Below, piece by piece: positions 15,891 to 50,100 of a stretch of DNA of 64,000 bases. This DNA comes from Candidatus Hodarchaeota archaeon (GTDB lineage Archaea > Asgardarchaeota > Heimdallarchaeia > Hodarchaeales > Hodarchaeaceae). Location: contig JAEOTM010000204.1 of the NCBI GenBank assembly GCA_016839815.1, positions 49,640 to 113,639 on the forward strand. The letters run 5' to 3'. The notes under the pieces are model-generated. The model did no database searches. It had not been told where the DNA came from and was given only the letters and a program-made list of their open reading frames with translations. Position 1 is the first letter of the stretch, and each line of letters opens with the position of its first letter. A program made the position numbers and the translations under genes.

Positions 15891-17066
15891 GTGAGAACCT
15901 TGAGAAAATCCGTTAGCAAAGGAAATATGTTAATTTTCTTCCTTTTTGTAAGTAATTTTGTTTGTTACGTGGCAGATTCCCGAGTAGATCAAGGAGAAGA
16001 ATGGTTGTTTGTTGAAGTAGCCAGAATAAGTACAGGAGGCGATGCTTACACGATTAAAATTGAAGAAAACTATTGCTACATCAGTTGTGGATATGGTGGA
16101 TTTAGAATTTTTGATATAAGCAATACAAGTTCCCCCATTGAGGTTGCTCACGTTCCTCAACCCGCTAGCGGGTATGCCCATCAGTTTATCATGCATAACA
16201 AAATCGCATTTATCGGGAATGGGTATGGAGGAATCTGGATCCTCAACTGTACTAATCCTGAAGCTCCAAATACAATAATCGAATATAATCATGATTATTC
16301 CTGGGATATTCAACTAAATGGAGATATTCTTTATGCAGGTAACGGACATATTGTCCCCCAAGAAAGTATAACCGTTACCAACATAAGTGATATTACTCAA
16401 CCTGTTCATGTAAGGACGATTCTAACTGATGATGATATCACCGATCTACAAAGGGTAAACCAACTATTATACGCTGCTAGTTCCACCAAAGGTTTTCTTA
16501 TATTTGATATTTCCAGTCAAACAAACCCATTCTATTTAGGAAATTATACTGATCCTTTAAATCCTGATATTTACCTTGTTAGCTTTGATATTATTGATGA
16601 ATATGCATTCGTGGTATATTATCAATATGGTCTGAAAGTATTGAATATTAGTGATCCTACAAACATTACACTGGTTACCGAGATAATCGACGAAACAGTC
16701 GATTATTACTCCATTCATGTTTTGAAGAACGTGGCGTACATTTCAAATATCAACCACGGTATTCAATTAATTAACGTGAGTGATCCTACTGATTTGGAAA
16801 TTATCGTAGACTATTCCTATCCCAATTGTGGGACTAATGATATCCTTCCACAAGAAGATCTATTATTTGTCGCCGATAGAAATATCGGATTTCTGATTTT
16901 TAATGTAACTAAACAGGTAAAATTAGTAACCTCCACATCAGAGGTAACAACGACTGATGTATCAAGCATTTCTTCACCCACAAATGGAACAACTTCTTTT
17001 CCTCCTCTTTGGTTCTTTATAATCTGTGGTTTATTTTTTTCACATTGGAAAAAAAGAGATTTATAA
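15891..17066 (+). CDS. LVIVD-repeat beta-propeller surface protein with C-terminal sorting signal
   Basis: Repeated G(F/L)xIxDISxPxxP units; Ser/Thr linker, SFPPLW, TM helix, KKR. Confidence 0.85.
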   Translation: MRTLRKSVSKGNMLIFFLFVSNFVCYVADSRVDQGEEWLFVEVARISTGGDAYTIKIEENYCYISCGYGGFRIFDISNTSSPIEVAHVPQPASGYAHQFIMHNKIAFIGNGYGGIWILNCTNPEAPNTIIEYNHDYSWDIQLNGDILYAGNGHIVPQESITVTNISDITQPVHVRTILTDDDITDLQRVNQLLYAASSTKGFLIFDISSQTNPFYLGNYTDPLNPDIYLVSFDIIDEYAFVVYYQYGLKVLNISDPTNITLVTEIIDETVDYYSIHVLKNVAYISNINHGIQLINVSDPTDLEIIVDYSYPNCGTNDILPQEDLLFVADRNIGFLIFNVTKQVKLVTSTSEVTTTDVSSISSPTNGTTSFPPLWFFIICGLFFSHWKKRDL

Positions 17067-17158: not shown

Positions 17159-17509
17159 ATGGCATATCAACAGCAAGAAAGGATCTTAATTAGTACCACT
17201 GATGAGATCCCAGGATATAAAATTGAGCAATATTTTGGATTAGCGTTTGGTGCGACGGTGAGAAGTCGTGGAATGGGAGGAGATTGTTTAGCTGGTTGCC
17301 AATCATCTTGCGGAGGAGAAGTCACTGCATTTACTGAAATGGCTCTCGAGGCAAGAAACCAGGCTATCAATCGCATGTTTGATGACGCGAGTCGGATGGG
17401 CGCTAATGCAATCATTGGATTAAAGTTCGACAGTGATCAAATTGGTCAAGGTGGCAATACAGCAACCATCGCTTATGGAACCGCGGTTAGAGTAGCACCT
17501 TTTCGATAA
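17159..17509 (+). CDS. YbjQ/UPF0145 putative heavy-metal-binding protein
   Basis: STTDEIPGYKI...GGEV...ARNQAINRM...GANAIIGLKFD...AYGTAV. Confidence 0.9.
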   Translation: MAYQQQERILISTTDEIPGYKIEQYFGLAFGATVRSRGMGGDCLAGCQSSCGGEVTAFTEMALEARNQAINRMFDDASRMGANAIIGLKFDSDQIGQGGNTATIAYGTAVRVAPFR

Positions 17510-17511
17510 CG

Positions 17512-18123
17512 GTGAATATGATAAACTTTCCCATTGCAATCAAATTACTTATTAAACGTTGGGAATTATCCTGGCGTTTTAAGTTTGCACACCATCCAAT
17601 ATGCACAAATTACCGGACACACTTTTGGAAAGTGGGAGGTCTCTACCTTTGCCAAGGGTGTAGTTTGGTTTACTCGTCGTTCCTCATAACACTTCTGTTC
17701 TTAATCATTTTTCACGTGATTCTTCTTCCAGCCCAATATTTAATTGTAGGAATGAGTCTCTTAGTATCTATTCTCTTGATTGAAAAATATAATGCTAACC
17801 TGCGATTTATAAAGCGGTTAGCTCGAGTAGGAACAGGTCTTGGGTTGGGAATCTCATTTTCTGCCTTTTTACTCTACCCAGATCTTTTCATTAAACTAGG
17901 TGGCCTTTTTGTCTCTCTTGCTGGTTTTTATTTATTCAATTATATTCGACGTACGAAAGAGAAAGAGGATAAATGTCAGACATGCGCTGACTACCAAGGG
18001 CATAAAATCTGCTATGGATTACGATTAGAAGCTGAAGCAATGAGGAAATATTCAGAATATGCTTCTGATTTACTACAACCGAGCTTGAAGTCAGCTTATA
18101 GTAAAAAACTCAAATATGACTAG
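17512..18123 (+). CDS. Cys/His-rich membrane protein (DUF2085-like)
   Basis: HHPIC...H...GLYLCQGC before 4 TM helices; C-terminal CQTC...ICYG; 2 nt downstream of the YbjQ gene. Confidence 0.65.
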   Translation: MNMINFPIAIKLLIKRWELSWRFKFAHHPICTNYRTHFWKVGGLYLCQGCSLVYSSFLITLLFLIIFHVILLPAQYLIVGMSLLVSILLIEKYNANLRFIKRLARVGTGLGLGISFSAFLLYPDLFIKLGGLFVSLAGFYLFNYIRRTKEKEDKCQTCADYQGHKICYGLRLEAEAMRKYSEYASDLLQPSLKSAYSKKLKYD

Positions 18124-18190
18124 TAAGATTGATTAAAAAAAAAGGAGGAAATGTTGTTGTTTCCTCCAGATAGGTTCTTCATTTCGATAT

Positions 18191-18877
18191 TTATTCCCGT
18201 TCTTTGTACTTTAATCCAATAAGAATTAGTACACCAATATTTATCGGAAGTAAGAATCCTGGAAATCCCTTAGCTTTTGTTGTAGTTGTAGTGGTGGTAG
18301 TTGTAGTAGTTACAATGGGAAGCATTTCAATTGACTCTAAGTATGGAAGAAATTCGTATACGATGGAAAAAAGATCACTATTATTCAAATCGGTGTTTCC
18401 GATCTCTAACAGCTGTGCAAATACAACAATCTCTAGGTCTGGATTTTCCATCTCTGGATATTCAATGAATATCAGACATAGCTGATTCTGATCAGTTTGA
18501 AAGTGTTCATTGATACTTCCTGATAGCCACATATCGTTTTCTGTAAAAGGATCACCAAGCATCCAGAAAAAATAGTAATCCCCTAAAGGAGCGCGAACAA
18601 AAAGAAGACTCCCTGTAACTTCATTATCTGCAGAATCTGAAGGGAGAGACAATAGGGTAAGAACCACTAACGACTTTGTTTCTCCACGAGCTGGTGCAAT
18701 AGAAAAATCATAATCAATAGTTACCCAAATATTGACTCCATGTTGCGATACCTCAAGGATGGATATCTCTGAATCAGATGTGGATGCATAGATCGGAGGA
18801 ACACCAGAGAAAATTATTGGTGCTATACAAAGTAGCAAAACACCTAATGTATACTTTAGCTTCATATTCTGTCCCAT
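18191..18877 (-). CDS. Exported protein with poly-Thr linker and PGF-type C-terminal sorting signal
   Basis: Signal peptide; ends TTTTTTTTTTTKAKGFPGFLLPINIGVLILIGLKYKERE; ATG overlaps the upstream stop (TAATG). Confidence 0.8.
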   Translation of the reverse strand: MGQNMKLKYTLGVLLLCIAPIIFSGVPPIYASTSDSEISILEVSQHGVNIWVTIDYDFSIAPARGETKSLVVLTLLSLPSDSADNEVTGSLLFVRAPLGDYYFFWMLGDPFTENDMWLSGSINEHFQTDQNQLCLIFIEYPEMENPDLEIVVFAQLLEIGNTDLNNSDLFSIVYEFLPYLESIEMLPIVTTTTTTTTTTTKAKGFPGFLLPINIGVLILIGLKYKERE

Positions 18878-19491
18878 TAGCCAGGTGGATTTATCCAGTC
18901 ATCTTCTGCTTCAATATTGCCCTTTGCTTTTCCTTCCTCATCATATTCAGTGTAAGTCCATTTAATCGTTTCGTAAGTAAAAGAGACAGTTTCTTTCGGA
19001 ATTTCATCAACACTGATTGTACCAAAGCTCTGTACTGAAGTGATTTTTGCATTGGTAAGTTCAATAGTATAAAAATTCAAACCATCAGGTTCGTAATAGA
19101 TTCTTAAGACTACTGAAGGAATAATAGTTGATTTTACGCACCTTTCAAAGATTTTAGGAGACGATTTATCCACAGATTTCATTACTCGAAGAGGAGAGTG
19201 TTGCTTTATAGTAAGATCTCCAGTCATTAGATCATACGGATTGCTGATAGTATGAGAGTAACCAAGGGCGGTTATTGAGTTTTCACGTCCTGCAATGATC
19301 GATTCACCATCAACTCCCTCAATAAATAGGTTCATTGATATCGAAGTAAAACCAGAATATTGGGTTTCGGTGATTGAGGCATTTACATCTTGGCCATAGC
19401 TAGCAATTAGCACGGTGAGAGTAAATATTCCAATAAAAATACCTAGAAGAACAACCAAACGTGTATTATATTTTATCTTCATTCTTTTCAC
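18877..19491 (-). CDS. hcp: Hcp (type VI secretion tube) family protein with N-terminal signal peptide
   Basis: LFIEGVDGES, HSPLRVMKSVDKSSPKIFERC, YTIELTNAKITSV, ETVSFTYETIKWTY follow the Hcp1 consensus in order; about 50-aa N-terminal extension with basic n-region and hydrophobic h-region. Confidence 0.88.
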   Translation of the reverse strand: MKRMKIKYNTRLVVLLGIFIGIFTLTVLIASYGQDVNASITETQYSGFTSISMNLFIEGVDGESIIAGRENSITALGYSHTISNPYDLMTGDLTIKQHSPLRVMKSVDKSSPKIFERCVKSTIIPSVVLRIYYEPDGLNFYTIELTNAKITSVQSFGTISVDEIPKETVSFTYETIKWTYTEYDEEGKAKGNIEAEDDWINPPG

Positions 19492-19652
19492 ATCATTTTT
19501 TCATAGATTTGAATAAGAAATACGATCCAGCTCAATGAATTCTAGGATTCTTATGCTTATCCAAAAAAAAGGGCCCTGATGAGAGAATCCTTCAGCTTTA
19601 ATGCCTTTTTCTGTATCGAAACTTGTTACTCGTAACGTTTATCGGGCGTGGG

Positions 19653-21620
19653 TTATTCTGAAGACTGATACGAAAGGTGTACTAATCTTTTTGCTTTTAC
19701 AAGGTATTCTTCGACTTGTGCTTGGACAAGACGCTCTTTGAGGGGGGCGTTATCTTTTATCAAGCGCTCCCACATACTTAATTGAGTCGTTAAAGTAGAT
19801 TCTTCTGCAATGACTCTGTTAAGAAGAAGTCGAAGGTTATTCTCTTCAGCAGTAATCTTCGCCTGAGCTAGAAACTGCATAGCTTTCGTTGGAAACCCCT
19901 CAATTAATGCTAATTTCGCTTGAAGGATTACAACATCAACCAACAAGGGAAAGGAATGTTGTTCCTGCGCAGCCGTAGCAAGATCAGTGATCAGCTTTTT
20001 AACGTCTAGAAAAACTTCATTTACATCTGTTATATCAATAGAGGCGGATCTGAGCTCAAACAAGAGCAGCTCACAGAGATTCAATACAGCAATTTTCTTA
20101 GAATCAGCAAGATAATTCAGGAGGTTGACTTGTATGTTTGGGTTATCGATTATTTCCTGAAGTAATTCTTGAGCTCGGGCTTTATCTTTGATTCGAATAC
20201 TTGTTTTCAAAATTAAGGCTTCAGCAAGTTTATACCACTGATCAAGAAATTCTTGACTCTGGGGATTCGATTGATAGTATTGAGTAAACATTGCAAAATA
20301 ATTCTTAGCCTCTGTGACGTCTCCATTATCGAGCATCACTAAAATCACCTCAAAAAAAGCTAATCCTTCTGTTTCCTTCCCAAAACGGAGTACTCTATGT
20401 TCTAATTCTTTTAAACATCTCTTATAATAAGTCAATGCAATGGAGTTATCACCTTTCGATCGATAAACACGGCCAATATGAAGAAAAGTTTGACAAAAAT
20501 AAAAATCATCATGAATGCTTTCCAATAAGGGAAGAGCTTTTTGGAAATTATGAAGAGCAGAATCTAAGTTACCTTTGAGGTGATAAAGATTACCCATATC
20601 AAGCAATGTCCAACAATGCACAATTGGTCGTCCATTGCATTTATAAATTACTTCACTACATTTATAATACTCCAAAGCTTTGTTAAAGTCCCCTTTGGCA
20701 TATTGGTGTAAATCTCCAAGAAGGTGCCAACATAGTTGTGTCCCATCAGTGTCCTCCAACTCCTCACAAACACGAAGACTCTTTTGAATCGATACAATAG
20801 AGTTCTCAGTTTCTCTGATATTATGAAAAAACATCCCTATTCCAAAATATACTCGAGCACTGCGAAAAGATTGTTGTATTCCATCAATTAGCTTTTGACT
20901 TCTCTTAATATAATCAACAGCCGCATTTAGATCCTCCAAATCCTGATAGGTATAAGCAAAATTAAGAAAGGTTTCAGCTAATCCTTCTTGATCATGAAGC
21001 GACTTATTAAGGGTCACACACTCTTGTAGAACAGATAATCTTTGCTTATTTTTGGAGCTCAATCCCAAAGCAGTTGAATAATCAAGAAGGACTTGGATTA
21101 ACTCCAATTTCTTATCTAGTGCCTTATAGTGTGATATACTAATTTGAAACGCCTTTTCTGCACGATTACGTTCTCCTAAAGCTCGGTATATAAGCCCCTT
21201 ATTCCTCTGTAAAATTGCAGTCCGATTTGATCTCTCTTGGGAGGTAAGATTTGAAATACGATCAAGAAGCTGCTCTCCCTCTTCCACAAGCTGTAAGTCC
21301 TGTATTAGCTTCTTTCTAGCATAGGTAGAGAAAAAGTGCTTAGCTAATCTTAGCGATTCAATTTTTGTAATAAGAGCATCTAGCAAAAATAACAGGTCCC
21401 CCGAGTGTTGTTCCCGTACTAAGAATAACGTATTATCTGCTAAATCAAGCCCATCTTCACTTTTGCCAATATTGCCCAGGATCTCACTCTTCAGAAGTTG
21501 ACAAATCAAATCCTCTTGAAATTCAAGGTTAGCAGTTTTTAACGTATCATTAACTGCTACTAAGGCCTCTTGGAAGAGATTCTGATCAATCAGCTTTTTG
21601 ATGTTCTGGTGACTCTCCAT
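19653..21620 (-). CDS. Tetratricopeptide repeat protein
   Basis: Repeated TPR units (LGDLH..KGDFNKALEYY, MGNLYHLKGNLDSAL, IGRVYRSKGDNSIALTYY); C-terminus paralogous to 2..1108. Confidence 0.9.
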   Translation of the reverse strand: MESHQNIKKLIDQNLFQEALVAVNDTLKTANLEFQEDLICQLLKSEILGNIGKSEDGLDLADNTLFLVREQHSGDLLFLLDALITKIESLRLAKHFFSTYARKKLIQDLQLVEEGEQLLDRISNLTSQERSNRTAILQRNKGLIYRALGERNRAEKAFQISISHYKALDKKLELIQVLLDYSTALGLSSKNKQRLSVLQECVTLNKSLHDQEGLAETFLNFAYTYQDLEDLNAAVDYIKRSQKLIDGIQQSFRSARVYFGIGMFFHNIRETENSIVSIQKSLRVCEELEDTDGTQLCWHLLGDLHQYAKGDFNKALEYYKCSEVIYKCNGRPIVHCWTLLDMGNLYHLKGNLDSALHNFQKALPLLESIHDDFYFCQTFLHIGRVYRSKGDNSIALTYYKRCLKELEHRVLRFGKETEGLAFFEVILVMLDNGDVTEAKNYFAMFTQYYQSNPQSQEFLDQWYKLAEALILKTSIRIKDKARAQELLQEIIDNPNIQVNLLNYLADSKKIAVLNLCELLLFELRSASIDITDVNEVFLDVKKLITDLATAAQEQHSFPLLVDVVILQAKLALIEGFPTKAMQFLAQAKITAEENNLRLLLNRVIAEESTLTTQLSMWERLIKDNAPLKERLVQAQVEEYLVKAKRLVHLSYQSSE

Positions 21621-21774: not shown

Positions 21775-22350
21775 TTAGATCTGCTTTCTAATTTCATTAA
21801 AGGCCTTAGACACCGAATCATCCATTAAAGTGGTTTTATATGTTATAAAAGACTCTAGTATTCCTTCTCTAAAGAAAGATTCCAGTTTTTCCAATTTGTC
21901 ATTCCTATTTTCATACTCAAGCTTATCAGTACAGTGTAGAAACAAAAAAATCTTAGCGTGAGGGGAAACACGATTTCTACACGCAATAACATTCTGAAAA
22001 AACTTCTGGGTTTTTTCTATCTCGAGTTGATCAGAACAACTCGAATCAACGACGTAAATAAGAGCAATACTGGTTTGGAACCATGATTCACAGGGAACCA
22101 TCCAATCCTGCATAAGGGAAATACTTCCCCCTAAATCAATTAGATCAATTTCCCGATTGTTGAAGCGTATGCGATTGATATTTAGACCATGAGTTATCGG
22201 AATTTCCAGCTGTAAAACCCTTTGAGGACCTCTACCCTGAAAAACTAGCATAATCGACGTTTTTCCGGGATGGCCTAGTCCCAATACAATTATTCTTTCA
22301 TCACTGAAAGGTATTCCTTTCCCGATTAGCTTCACCTTTCCTTTAGTCAA
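21775..22350 (-). CDS. Arf/Rag-like small GTPase
   Basis: GLGHPGKTS (G1), ITHG (G2), DLGG (G3), IYVVDS, HCTD (G4 variant). Confidence 0.8.
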   Translation of the reverse strand: MTKGKVKLIGKGIPFSDERIIVLGLGHPGKTSIMLVFQGRGPQRVLQLEIPITHGLNINRIRFNNREIDLIDLGGSISLMQDWMVPCESWFQTSIALIYVVDSSCSDQLEIEKTQKFFQNVIACRNRVSPHAKIFLFLHCTDKLEYENRNDKLEKLESFFREGILESFITYKTTLMDDSVSKAFNEIRKQI

Positions 22351-47163: not shown

Positions 47164-50100
47164 TTAATCACGATTTCTTATCTTTTGTATAAGATCTCGG
47201 ATAGCATCTCTCTTCTTTATTCCAACAAATGCCACTGGTATTGAAAATAATACCAATAAACCGATTAAAATCGCATTCGAACCAGAAGCAGGATCATTCG
47301 GATCATTTGGGTCAGAGTCAAGTTCATATTCCCGTAGATTGGAGTAACCATCATCGTCTGCATCCAGCTCTGCATCATTAATAAGAGGGTTCAATCTGTT
47401 TCTAACTTCCCAGCCATCAGGCATTCCATCATTATCGGTGTCCCAAATCTGGGGGTTGGTTCCATGTGTGAATTCTTCATAGTTAGATAACTCATCTACA
47501 TCTGGATCTAAAGCGGAATCATTGTTCAATGGATTAAGAGAGTTGAAGACTTCCCAACCATCAGGGATCAGATCGGCATCAGAATCGGCATTTTGAGGAT
47601 TAGTTCCTTCATAGAATTCATCTAAATTGAATAGCTCATCATTGTCCGCATCTGAGTAACTGTCGTTAAGAATGGGATTGAGAGAGTTTAGAACTTCCCA
47701 CTCATCAGGCATACCATCATCGTCAGTATCGGCCTTTTGTGGATTAGTTGAAGCATTATATTCCTCAATATTCAGTAATCCATCCATATCAGGATCAAGA
47801 TTGGCATCATTGGCCCGTGGATTAAGACTGTGGCGAACTTCCCAACCATCAGGCATTCCATCGTTATCTGTGTCACTATCAGTGGCATTGGTAGAATAAT
47901 CATATATTTCATTGAAATCAAAGAGTCCATCTCCATCAGTGTCATTATTATTTGGATTAGAATTATAGACATTGATTTCGGTCCAATCTGCAACACCATC
48001 TTCGTCAGCATCGGGAAAAACCTCGATATCATAATGCATTATTGATGTAGAATTCATAAGACCTACATTGTCATAACTGATAACATAGTAATAGATGATA
48101 TTTGTTGGTGTTTCAGGAATTATCTTAATAAAGGTAGCACTGAACGCAGTCCCACCGGAGAGTTGCATTGGCATTTCAATCCAGGAATTTCTATCATAGG
48201 ATATATACAATGTTGTTCCAGACATATTTAATTGAACATTGTCTTCTACATGCACCTCTATTGGCACTTCAGCTGGCTGAGGGATACTATTTCCAACTGG
48301 AACCTGAACAAACGTTATGGTGGGGGCTAAACCATCTATCATATACGTAGTACTTGTTGAATTCCTAGACTGTCCAATTGTATCAATTGCATTAATTAAG
48401 TATTCTACATTAGCATTTATGCTAATTGGATCGATAGATGCTTGGAATGCTCCATTCTCTAAACTCATTGTTTTACTATGGAAAAAACCATTTATCCAGT
48501 AATATAGTTTAACAGCCCCAATACCATAGTCATCCGTAATAAAGGCTGTTACAGTGACTCGCGTGTTGAGAGGAATCTCTGCAGGAAAGTGGGTAACAAA
48601 TAGAATCTCGGGCTGAGTATCAATTACATAATAACGAACTATAGAGCTCGACGTTAATCTATTTAAATCGCTTGCTTCGATGTAATAAGCAACTACTCCA
48701 CTAGAGATAGCAGGAATATCAGCATAAAACCTACCTGTAATCATATCACCACTTTCTAGTATCATAGCTTGACTAAACCAAGTAATTTCATCTGTAGAAT
48801 AGAATAATCTGGGAGTATGGAGTCCATTATTATCTGAAATTTCAGTATAAACCCTTGGGGATACAAATTGTGAAACAGGATCGAAATCTGTTACTCCACT
48901 AATAGTAGGATACACTCCATCAGTATAATATGAAAGGACACCACTACTAGAGGTACGATTCGCCATATCTGAAACAAAAATGTAATAATCAACATTACCA
49001 TCCATGGAGGAGGCTGGAATTTCTGCGAAGTAATCGGGTTCAATATCAAATTCGAAAGAATAAAAGAAAATATCATCATTTTCTGTATCACGAATCTCAA
49101 TCCGCCATTGCTCATATACGATATTCGCCCAGTTAAATTCAGGAATATACCCTGTCCCTAGGATCGTAGAGGAATAAAACTGTTCCCAAATACCAGTATC
49201 AATTCGGAATCCCCAGAGTGTCACAGCGATTGTATCCGCATCACTGGAATAGGTATACACTGAAAGGCGAGAGAGGGGTCCACTGGCATATTCTGCGGAA
49301 ATTACTTCATTATAAAATGTCCCTGATATGGGATTACGACCAGTGATAGTATGCATCCCAGCAGAAATGAAATCAACAGTGTTCCAAGTAGATCCATCAA
49401 AGGTATAGAAGAGTGTCACATTTCGGAAGGGATTTTTGTCTTCAATAGTGCTGTATATACTTATAATATCGAGTAGGTTAGAATTTGAAGGAGATTGAAC
49501 GATATAACTGATATTGGGATCAACTCCGTCAGAATAATACTGATAAGTGCCACTTACTGTAGATTGAAGGAAAGTATCTAACACACTTACAGAATATGTT
49601 ACGTTGGTATCGATTAACGTACTCGGAATAATTCCTTGATATGCACCATCTTGGAATGTCATCACAGATGAATGGTTGGTATCATCATAATAATAGTACA
49701 ATGATACATTGAAGATCCCATAGTCGTCACTTGCAAAGACATAGACAGTTACCGGGATATCTGACCGAACATAATCATAAGAAAGATTAGTACTAGAAAT
49801 TACGGGTTTATAATCAATCAGAGAATTAATTGGAGAAGATTGGTTAGTCCAACCGAGTTCGTCTATAATAGTAACATAATAAGATAACGCAAGATCCCCA
49901 GATGATGCAGGTAATAATCCAGAGTAAGTACCAAGGTTCGTTGACTGATTCTGGAGTATCATTTGAGTTTGATACCATGTGGAATTATCATAGGTGTAAA
50001 AGAGGGTTACAGACATATTAGCATTGATAACCGCATCAGAAATCGTAGTATAAACAATATCTCCTGATCCACTAATTCTTGTAGAGTTGGTAAGACTGAC

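Follow-up and report, generated by a model that had tools for sequence, protein, structure and literature searches.

A two-gene locus for a putatively exported Hcp-family protein and a stalked partner protein in Hodarchaeales

What is a protein of the Hcp family doing behind an apparent export signal in an archaeon? In bacteria, Hcp is a cytoplasmic protein without a signal peptide, and its hexameric rings stack into the tube of a type VI secretion system (T6SS). In the textbook picture, it leaves the cell only when fired by the contractile sheath. The question is raised by a stretch of 64,000 nucleotides (below, "the window") from Candidatus Hodarchaeota archaeon, positions 49,640 to 113,639 of the forward strand of contig JAEOTM010000204.1 (assembly GCA_016839815.1). 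Hodarchaeales are the Asgard group placed closest to eukaryotes. On the minus strand of the window, two open reading frames (ORFs) are listed in the same direction, at 18877–19491 (204 residues from a GTG) and at 18191–18877 (228 residues). An earlier reading, made from the letters and the translations (the sequence-only reading), took the first for a T6SS tube protein repurposed for Sec export and the second for its surface-anchored partner. We consider it probable, by a modest measure, that the two genes form an operon for a T6SS-independent, extracytoplasmic Hcp module (the first gene product), tethered at the cell surface.

The product of 18877–19482 belongs, by sequence and by predicted fold, to the true Hcp/TssD family. 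This assignment is solid because full-profile matches in Pfam and NCBIfam, profile matches in the PDB, and Foldseek matches agree. In Pfam, residues 56–180 match T6SS_HCP (PF05638) over profile positions 3–129 of 129 (E 2.2e-26, 93.1 bits vs. a cut-off of 23.5). In NCBIfam, the match is with TssD (TIGR03344; E 9.5e-21, 74.4 bits vs. a cut-off of 58.9). The Hcp1 consensus that had been recognized by eye from about residue 51 onward is borne out by both. With a profile built from 19 relatives, the best match in the PDB is 7FCF (E 1.9e-25), followed by 4W64, EvpC (3EAA), and Hcp1 (1Y12). The AlphaFold2 (AF2) model has a predicted local distance difference test (pLDDT) value of 71.7, with a helix at residues 2–32, a disordered linker at 33–50, and a beta domain at 52–198. 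When this model is compared with the PDB in Foldseek, the top 50 structures are all Hcp proteins or Hcp1 fusion constructs (probability 1.0, E down to 1.7e-10). The Hcp1 structures 4w64, 7fcf, and 1y12 are matched at probability 1.0, and a fold other than Hcp, which the sequence-only reading had allowed for, finds no place here. The alignment of the Hcp relatives contains 36 invariant columns.

The leader ahead of the Hcp domain can be read directly in the translation, and is as first described: a basic n-region, a hydrophobic region of ~22 residues, and a c-region ending in V-N-A before Ser. The n-h-c pattern is kept in all relatives aligned. All 19 aligned relatives have V or A at −3, A or S at −1, and Ser or Thr at +1; 18 of them have Asn at −2. 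The conservation of N-A-S at this site is far stronger than a signal peptidase needs. Most of the relatives of type B (a paralogue lineage) and of the more distant ones that were read keep the small residues (for example A-T-A or A-Q-A before S); in these relatives, the Asn is absent, and the hydrophobic region has 16–17 residues. The leader fits a cleaved Sec (class I) signal peptide. Whether cleaved or not, it would put the Hcp domain outside the cytoplasm because the n-region is positively charged (positive-inside rule). On sequence grounds, there is as much support as can be had for an archaeal Hcp fold that is preceded by a Sec-type export signal. A class III (pilin-type) signal was considered and rejected, since in no relative does a K/R followed by G/A/S occur ahead of the hydrophobic stretch.

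The two gene starts deserve some attention, because each has an alternative. The Hcp homologues begin with MK(I/M)K, and a GTGA(T) or GGTGAT motif occurs 4–7 nucleotides ahead of the Hcp ATG in nine of 11 loci. The start is therefore most likely the ATG at 19482 (201 residues), and the GTG at 19491 would belong to the ribosome-binding-like motif. A start at an internal Met without conserved leader, the alternative named in the sequence-only reading, does not agree with a leader kept in all homologues and with the conserved motif at the upstream ATG. For the partner, the ATG in the homologues lies 11–13 nucleotides past the Hcp stop and is preceded by a GTGA-like motif, so that the ATG at 18865 (224 residues) is likelier than the ATG at 18877. 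The stop/start overlap TAATG that had drawn attention to the pair is present in the letters, and the genes are tightly coupled, but with such homologue junctions the overlap itself is probably incidental. The short gap, the ribosome-binding-like motif, and a terminator-like hairpin with a T9 run would together describe a bicistronic unit of Hcp and partner. Upstream, the element GGATAAGCATAAGAATCC is nearly identical in three loci (L006, L007, and L008) and similar in three others (L009, L003, and L010); it may act as the promoter (candidate TATA/BRE).

Is there a contractile machine for this Hcp? The assembly to which the window belongs has 4.24 Mb, with 89.5% completeness and 7.8% contamination. 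In it, the models VipA, VipB, Phage_GPD (VgrG), PAAR, gp25, and Phage_sheath_1 have no match. The earlier statement that the window holds no sheath, VgrG, PAAR, or baseplate gene is thereby borne out and also holds over the whole assembly; a full T6SS or extracellular contractile injection system elsewhere in the genome, which could have accounted for the Hcp, does not appear with the sheath, spike, and baseplate models. The search for the gp19 tube family (PF06841) also gave no match, but its control was silent as well. In the class as a whole, Hcp occurs in 21 of 83 genomes; apart from that of the window, these are 17 of the 21 other genomes of its genus-level group and three of the 12 of a second family. 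VipB (TssC) is found in none of the 83, and a phage-type sheath in one, which is Hcp-negative. In two closed genomes of the same genus, each a single contig (G055 and G057), Hcp is present while TssC and the phage sheath have no match. A word search gave 27 close relatives; these and 10 related genome loci are named as Hodarchaeota, Hodarchaeales, Heimdallarchaeota, or Promethearchaeota metagenome-assembled genomes (MAGs). The possibility of a prophage or tail-tube remnant was rejected: the flanks vary by locus, none of the genes read within ~6 kb on either side is a phage gene, and the pair is kept across the genus.

The conservation of the pair across Asgard genomes, proposed earlier as a check, is strict among the loci at hand. 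Each of the 11 other archaeal loci examined has a partner homologue immediately after Hcp on the downstream side, with different flanking genes. The genome of the window contains a second, divergent pair on another contig (C17), with Hcp 33% and partner 23% identical to the copies in the window. In the closed genome G057, Hcp and partner are ~100 nucleotides apart. In G055, the partner beside the first Hcp matches with its N-terminal half only (a frame of 146 residues), and a separate match to the C-terminal two-thirds occurs 1.36 Mb away (C1:2370811–2371125 and 1008590–1009051); the partner gene there could be split, rearranged, or mis-assembled. In the second family of the class, the Hcp with leader precedes exported proteins of 639–888 residues with a Kelch propeller and PKD/immunoglobulin (Ig)-like domains, which carry a C-terminal transmembrane (TM) segment and a basic tail wherever their end is visible. 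Homology between the small partner and these large proteins was rejected (hhalign probability 0.2). Because the second-family Hcp also precedes such proteins, the general rule would be that an exported Hcp comes first and that a surface protein, itself exported and anchored, comes next.

The partner itself is built from a signal peptide, a globular part of ~150 residues, eleven consecutive Thr, a GFPGF motif, a hydrophobic span, and a basic tail, of which KYKERE are the last residues. The exported protein with poly-Thr linker (Thr run at 18278–18310), PGF motif, TM helix, and basic tail of the sequence-only reading is thus read again here. The n-h-c pattern of a signal peptide is present in all 14 partner sequences, and every partner has, at the corresponding position, a Ser/Thr-rich stalk of variable length. 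The protein matches no family in Pfam or NCBIfam. The AF2 model of the ectodomain is a confident beta-sandwich with one helix (core pLDDT ~90). In Foldseek against the PDB, nothing is found at E <= 0.001. In an exhaustive structure search (VIA), the best Z is 6.9, under the tool noise level of 7–8; the longer alignments involve CBM9, EB_dh, and DOMON-like sandwiches and many Ig domains, all under noise. A DOMON/CBM9-like fold is a lead only. In the ESM Atlas, a search by shape gives template-modeling scores (TM-scores) of at most 0.46, and a search by features no usable match. The family is tiny: it makes up 13 clusters in a set of 5.8 billion proteins, and no cluster has a Pfam domain. With identities in the range of 23%–53% for the partner versus 44%–80% for Hcp, the partner evolves much faster than Hcp.

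The C-terminal end of the partner recalls proteins processed by archaeal sorting enzymes. A heimdallarchaeosortase (NF045528) is encoded elsewhere in the genome, on contig C6 (L016:1132–1875; E 2.8e-82, 275.6 bits vs. a cut-off of 130). It carries Cys (A-C-T-G), Arg (L-R-I), and His motifs, which are typical of exosortases and archaeosortases. The generic exosortase family of Pfam (PF09721) draws a blank in this genome, which is a failure of sensitivity, because the NF045528 model does find the sortase there. A profile of the partner family (A3) picks out similar tails, 50 residues at the C-terminus, in seven further large proteins (E 1e-6 to 8e-4 for PGF tails); these proteins, at least seven in number, are encoded on contigs C101, C82, C60, C201, and C45. 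In the four tails that were read, a Thr/Asp-rich stretch is followed by (T/A)PGF(E/G), or in one case SGFE, then by a hydrophobic span and an Arg/Lys tail, as in the Heimdall-CTERM type. Two of these proteins score 23.7 and 24.0 bits against the Heimdall-CTERM cut-off of 24. Since both a heimdallarchaeosortase and Heimdall-CTERM proteins are encoded, the organism has a PGF-type sorting system. For the partner, "PGF-type" denotes resemblance, short of demonstrated membership.

Contact between the two proteins was approached by co-folding mature Hcp (residues 39–204) with the partner ectodomain (residues 28–180), both given as alignments. The median score is 0.39, and the three controls reach 0.00 at best. 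At least 91% of contacts are shared by the runs, and the partner keeps a pLDDT of 82 or more. In the calibration of the tool, the mark is reached by 58 of 80 solved complexes and by two of 110 mismatched pairs. Passes at 0.60 or below comprise only seven of the 80 solved complexes, and both of the mismatched pairs that passed. The model thus makes a direct contact slightly more likely without establishing it. The tethering by the partner foreseen in the sequence-only reading keeps a weak pass in its favor.

Are exported Hcp proteins peculiar to these archaea? Searched exhaustively with HMMER, 1.84 billion cluster representatives yield 2856 matches. Among the best 150 of these, 127 are single-domain; a hydrophobic leader precedes the Hcp domain in 100 and is absent in 20. 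Many of the nearest relatives have a classic A-x-A site right before the first Hcp strand. Bacterial examples with such a leader are Pedosphaera parvula (WP_007418924, Verrucomicrobiota) and, at loci L013–L015, Verrucomicrobiota MAGs and a Dehalococcoidia MAG. The leader of the Dehalococcoidia Hcp (DUEY01000006.1, L014:3758–4504) is of the lipoprotein type, with a Cys after L-I-V-A, and the protein also contains a linker rich in Pro and Thr. To our knowledge, Dehalococcoidia have no outer membrane, so that a T6SS is not expected in them. No T6SS genes occur within 7 kb in the three non-archaeal loci read. In one of them, Hcp genes stand in tandem, flanked by housekeeping genes; in another, an Hcp is surrounded by giant extracellular proteins, with a C25 peptidase and a dockerin; the third encodes a protein of 2164 residues with six Hcp domains (L031:7001–13495, P0034/P0186). 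Among 23 relatives with several Hcp domains, the commonest count is six (nine of 23), and chains extend up to six or seven domains. The giant six-Hcp proteins have 1099–2164 residues (P0034/P0186, P0035, P0036, P0041, P0052, P0057, P0062, and P0100). From their domain count, such chains look like a covalent hexameric ring. Several of these giants begin with an LE-R-LL type motif, which is known from secreted Planctomycetes proteins. In a quick, unrooted maximum-likelihood tree with many weak forks, the clade of the window has 12 rows, all with a leader (Shimodaira–Hasegawa-like approximate likelihood-ratio test, SH-aLRT, 95). It nests in a clade of 72 rows (SH-aLRT 97), 64 of them with a leader; the type B lineage falls in the sister part of that larger clade. 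The idea of an Hcp repurposed for Sec export is supported by the leader, by the fold, and by the machinery searches. By these counts, it is not an Asgard invention, because leader-bearing Hcp is common among the nearest relatives, bacterial ones included.

For the locus of the window, the following series of steps can be proposed. The pre-Hcp would cross the membrane unfolded via Sec, signal peptidase I would cut after V-N-A, and Hcp would fold outside the cell. It would be held at the surface by the co-expressed, anchored partner, whose tail is perhaps processed by the heimdallarchaeosortase of the genome. On this reading, the module would be a structural or binding element of the envelope, not a projectile. 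The multi-Hcp relatives, most often with six domains, lend indirect support to the ring as a unit outside T6SS.

Several points weigh against this proposal. Export and cleavage of Hcp are predictions from the sequence, and hexameric rings outside the cell would be the most likely product by analogy with the family. The hydrophobic region of ~22 residues contrasts with the ~14–17 residues in other secreted proteins of the genome, and its length could be that of an uncleaved signal anchor. The N-A-S at the putative cleavage site (19378–19386, minus strand) also reads as an N-glycosylation sequon, which would be relevant only if the site stays in mature Hcp. The specific interface between Hcp and partner is not universal, because the downstream protein of the second family is unrelated to the small partner. 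A weak co-fold pass, by the calibration above, misleads in the majority of cases, except where contact was already to be expected. In the partner family, the Gly alone of "PGF" is invariant, and the tail (residues 170–228) has no match at E <= 10 to Heimdall-CTERM (NF045529) or PGF-CTERM (TIGR04126). The description of the partner as PGF-type agrees with the sortase and the true PGF tails in the genome, but not with a tail that misses both models. Lastly, the genome searched for machinery genes is 89.5% complete.

Some of these points lead to other explanations. If the helix stays uncleaved, Hcp would be a type II membrane protein, with its domain outside on a short linker, beside the C-terminally anchored partner, and the N-A-S perhaps glycosylated. 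The hydrophobic region is long enough for a membrane and longer than the signal peptides of the Heimdall-CTERM proteins, AF2 gives a single continuous helix over residues 2–32, and the N-x-S/T sequon is kept in 18 of 19 relatives. Yet every one of the 19 type A relatives obeys the rule of small residues at positions −3 and −1, and such residues are also found in most type B and distant relatives, which have no Asn and a hydrophobic region of 16–17 residues; we regard a signal-anchored Hcp as unlikely. Hcp could also act alone after secretion, whether as a soluble ring that serves as carrier or chaperone, as an adhesin, or as a subunit of a fiber, the neighbor being a co-expressed envelope cargo and not a tether. 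This would suit the downstream proteins, wholly different between the two archaeal families, and the bacterial leader-Hcp genes, which lack such a partner and lie among large extracellular proteins or in tandem. It would suit also the classic arrangement of T6SS loci, where cargo effectors are encoded right behind their hcp gene. We find this quite unlikely, given that the small partner is a strict neighbor of Hcp in each of the 11 other archaeal loci as well as in the two pairs of the genome, and a co-fold score above all controls, if weakly so.

A cytoplasmic Hcp of an unrecognized or unassembled contractile system, or a contig from a bacterial contaminant, with the leader an artefact of annotation, seems very improbable to us. 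The completeness and contamination of the assembly leave some room for it, as does the gp19 search with its silent control. Against it stand a leader kept at the protein level and an upstream ATG with its conserved ribosome-binding-like motif. The two single-contig genomes of the same genus have Hcp and no match to TssC or phage sheath, and all 10 close loci come from independent assemblies of MAGs named as Hodarchaeota or Heimdallarchaeota. Close to the pair in the window, moreover, lies a Gtr1/RagA-type GTPase typical of Asgard archaea. The tethered, exported module is the reading that we retain.

The Hcp label of these genes is already in the databases, and the family assignment is not new. 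Added here are the co-occurrence counts over the class, the heimdallarchaeosortase context, the second type of partner, the bacterial exported Hcp proteins, the six-domain chains, and the corrected starts. In the literature searched (which included few subscription journals), there is no description of Asgard Hcp or of Hcp proteins with a signal peptide. The Hcp fold appears to be routed via the general export pathway in a group where 0 of the 21 Hcp-carrying genomes match a T6SS or phage-type sheath, and the database name "type VI secretion system effector/tube protein" wrongly implies a T6SS in these archaea. If the exported Hcp forms rings outside the cell, it would be a new building block for the almost unknown envelope of Hodarchaeales, and it would point to a much larger, uncharacterized class of bacterial exported Hcp. 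A broader view, which we offer tentatively and hold to be rather doubtful as it stands, is that Sec-exported Hcp proteins are widespread, unrecognized extracellular scaffolds of rings or tubes without a contractile machine. They would extend over Hodarchaeales, Verrucomicrobiota, Dehalococcoidia, and other metagenomic lineages, and would comprise forms tethered as lipoproteins as well as covalent hexamers, with six Hcp domains in a single chain. In Hodarchaeales, the rings would be docked on the stalked partners as a defined envelope structure, such as a lattice at the surface, a conduit like a pore, or a platform for binding.

The features of the locus are collected in Table 1.

Table 1. Features of the Hcp–partner locus, in window coordinates
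Feature	Position	Strand	Basis or remark
Hcp-family gene, 201 residues and stop	18877..19482	−	GTG at 19491 gives an alternative of 204 residues
Putative N-terminal export leader of Hcp	19378..19482	−	read from the sequence, kept in relatives
Hcp beta-barrel domain, residues 51–204 (numbering of the 204-residue form)	18880..19341	−	profile matches, strands of the model, alignment
Partner gene, 224 residues and stop	18191..18865	−	ATG at 18877 in TAATG gives an alternative of 228 residues
Predicted signal peptide of the partner, with basic n-region, hydrophobic core, and I-Y-A ahead of Ser	18785..18865	−	read from the sequence
Partner ectodomain: predicted beta-sandwich, then one helix	18323..18784	−	AF2 model
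Eleven Thr codons in a row; stalk, probable O-glycosylation site	18278..18310	−	read from the sequence
Partner C-terminus: GFPGF motif, hydrophobic span, basic tail	18194..18268	−	read from the sequence
Terminator-like hairpin (8 pairs), then T9 run, 24 nucleotides past the partner stop	18135..18167	−	sequence
Upstream element GGATAAGCATAAGAATCC, candidate TATA/BRE promoter ~65–80 nucleotides before the Hcp ATG	19545..19562	−	kept among loci
Shine-Dalgarno-like GATGTGA ahead of the Hcp ATG	19488..19494	−	motif kept among loci

Other genes of the window lie near the pair. At 15891–17066 (plus strand), 1.1 kb away, there is an exported protein of 391 residues with an LVIVD-repeat/choice-of-anchor-B-like beta-propeller. 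With its Ser/Thr stalk and with a TM segment and basic tail at the C-terminus, it is another surface protein. At 17159–18123 (plus strand), a YbjQ_1 gene is followed, after a gap of two nucleotides, by a gene for a membrane protein of 203 residues that belongs to no family and has several Cys/His motifs. In one MAG locus (L004), YbjQ_1 and a no-family protein of 202 residues, presumably the same two genes, flank Hcp. On the other side of the pair, at 21775–22350 (minus strand) and 2.3 kb away, a small GTPase of 191 residues, a eukaryote-like signature protein, is assigned to the Gtr1/RagA family at E 6e-20 and matches Arf less well; a tetratricopeptide repeat (TPR) protein of 655 residues (19653–21620) adjoins it.

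Compared with the Hcp/TssD proteins of T6SS (Acinetobacter baumannii Hcp1, 4W64; 7FCF; Pseudomonas aeruginosa Hcp1, 1Y12), the archaeal protein is predicted to have the same beta-barrel, with TM-scores by target of 0.68–0.83, and shares the family motifs in the SP(L/I)R, DK-SPK, and IKW-YT blocks. It differs by the addition of a conserved export leader and a linker of 14 residues, and an anchored surface protein accompanies it in every case. In its genome, no sheath, spike, baseplate, or PAAR genes were found, and in the class no TssC.

The order of the genes is like that of the hcp-effector pairs of T6SS, with hcp first and then, directly downstream, a small protein of no known family (ectodomain of ~17 kDa). 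The cargo of Hcp is bound in the lumen of the ring, and the size range reported for such cargo includes ~17 kDa, to which the partner ectodomain may be likened. Unlike an effector, however, the archaeal downstream protein has a signal peptide and a membrane anchor, and the pair shows neither toxin/immunity features nor a firing machine.

At the C-terminus of the partner, the Thr stalk, the GFPGF motif, the hydrophobic span, and the basic tail are similar to the ends of PGF-CTERM proteins, the substrates paired with archaeosortase A (TIGR04126 and TIGR04125), and of Heimdall-CTERM proteins, paired with heimdallarchaeosortase (NF045529 and NF045528). The partner tail, which a sortase may process, nevertheless matches neither model.

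A further likeness is with the bacterial leader-Hcp set. In those proteins, an Hcp domain stands directly behind a signal peptide or a lipoprotein-type leader, with no T6SS genes within 7 kb at the loci that were read. The bacterial loci lack the stalked partner of Hodarchaeales and show tandem genes, C-terminal extensions, or multi-domain chains.

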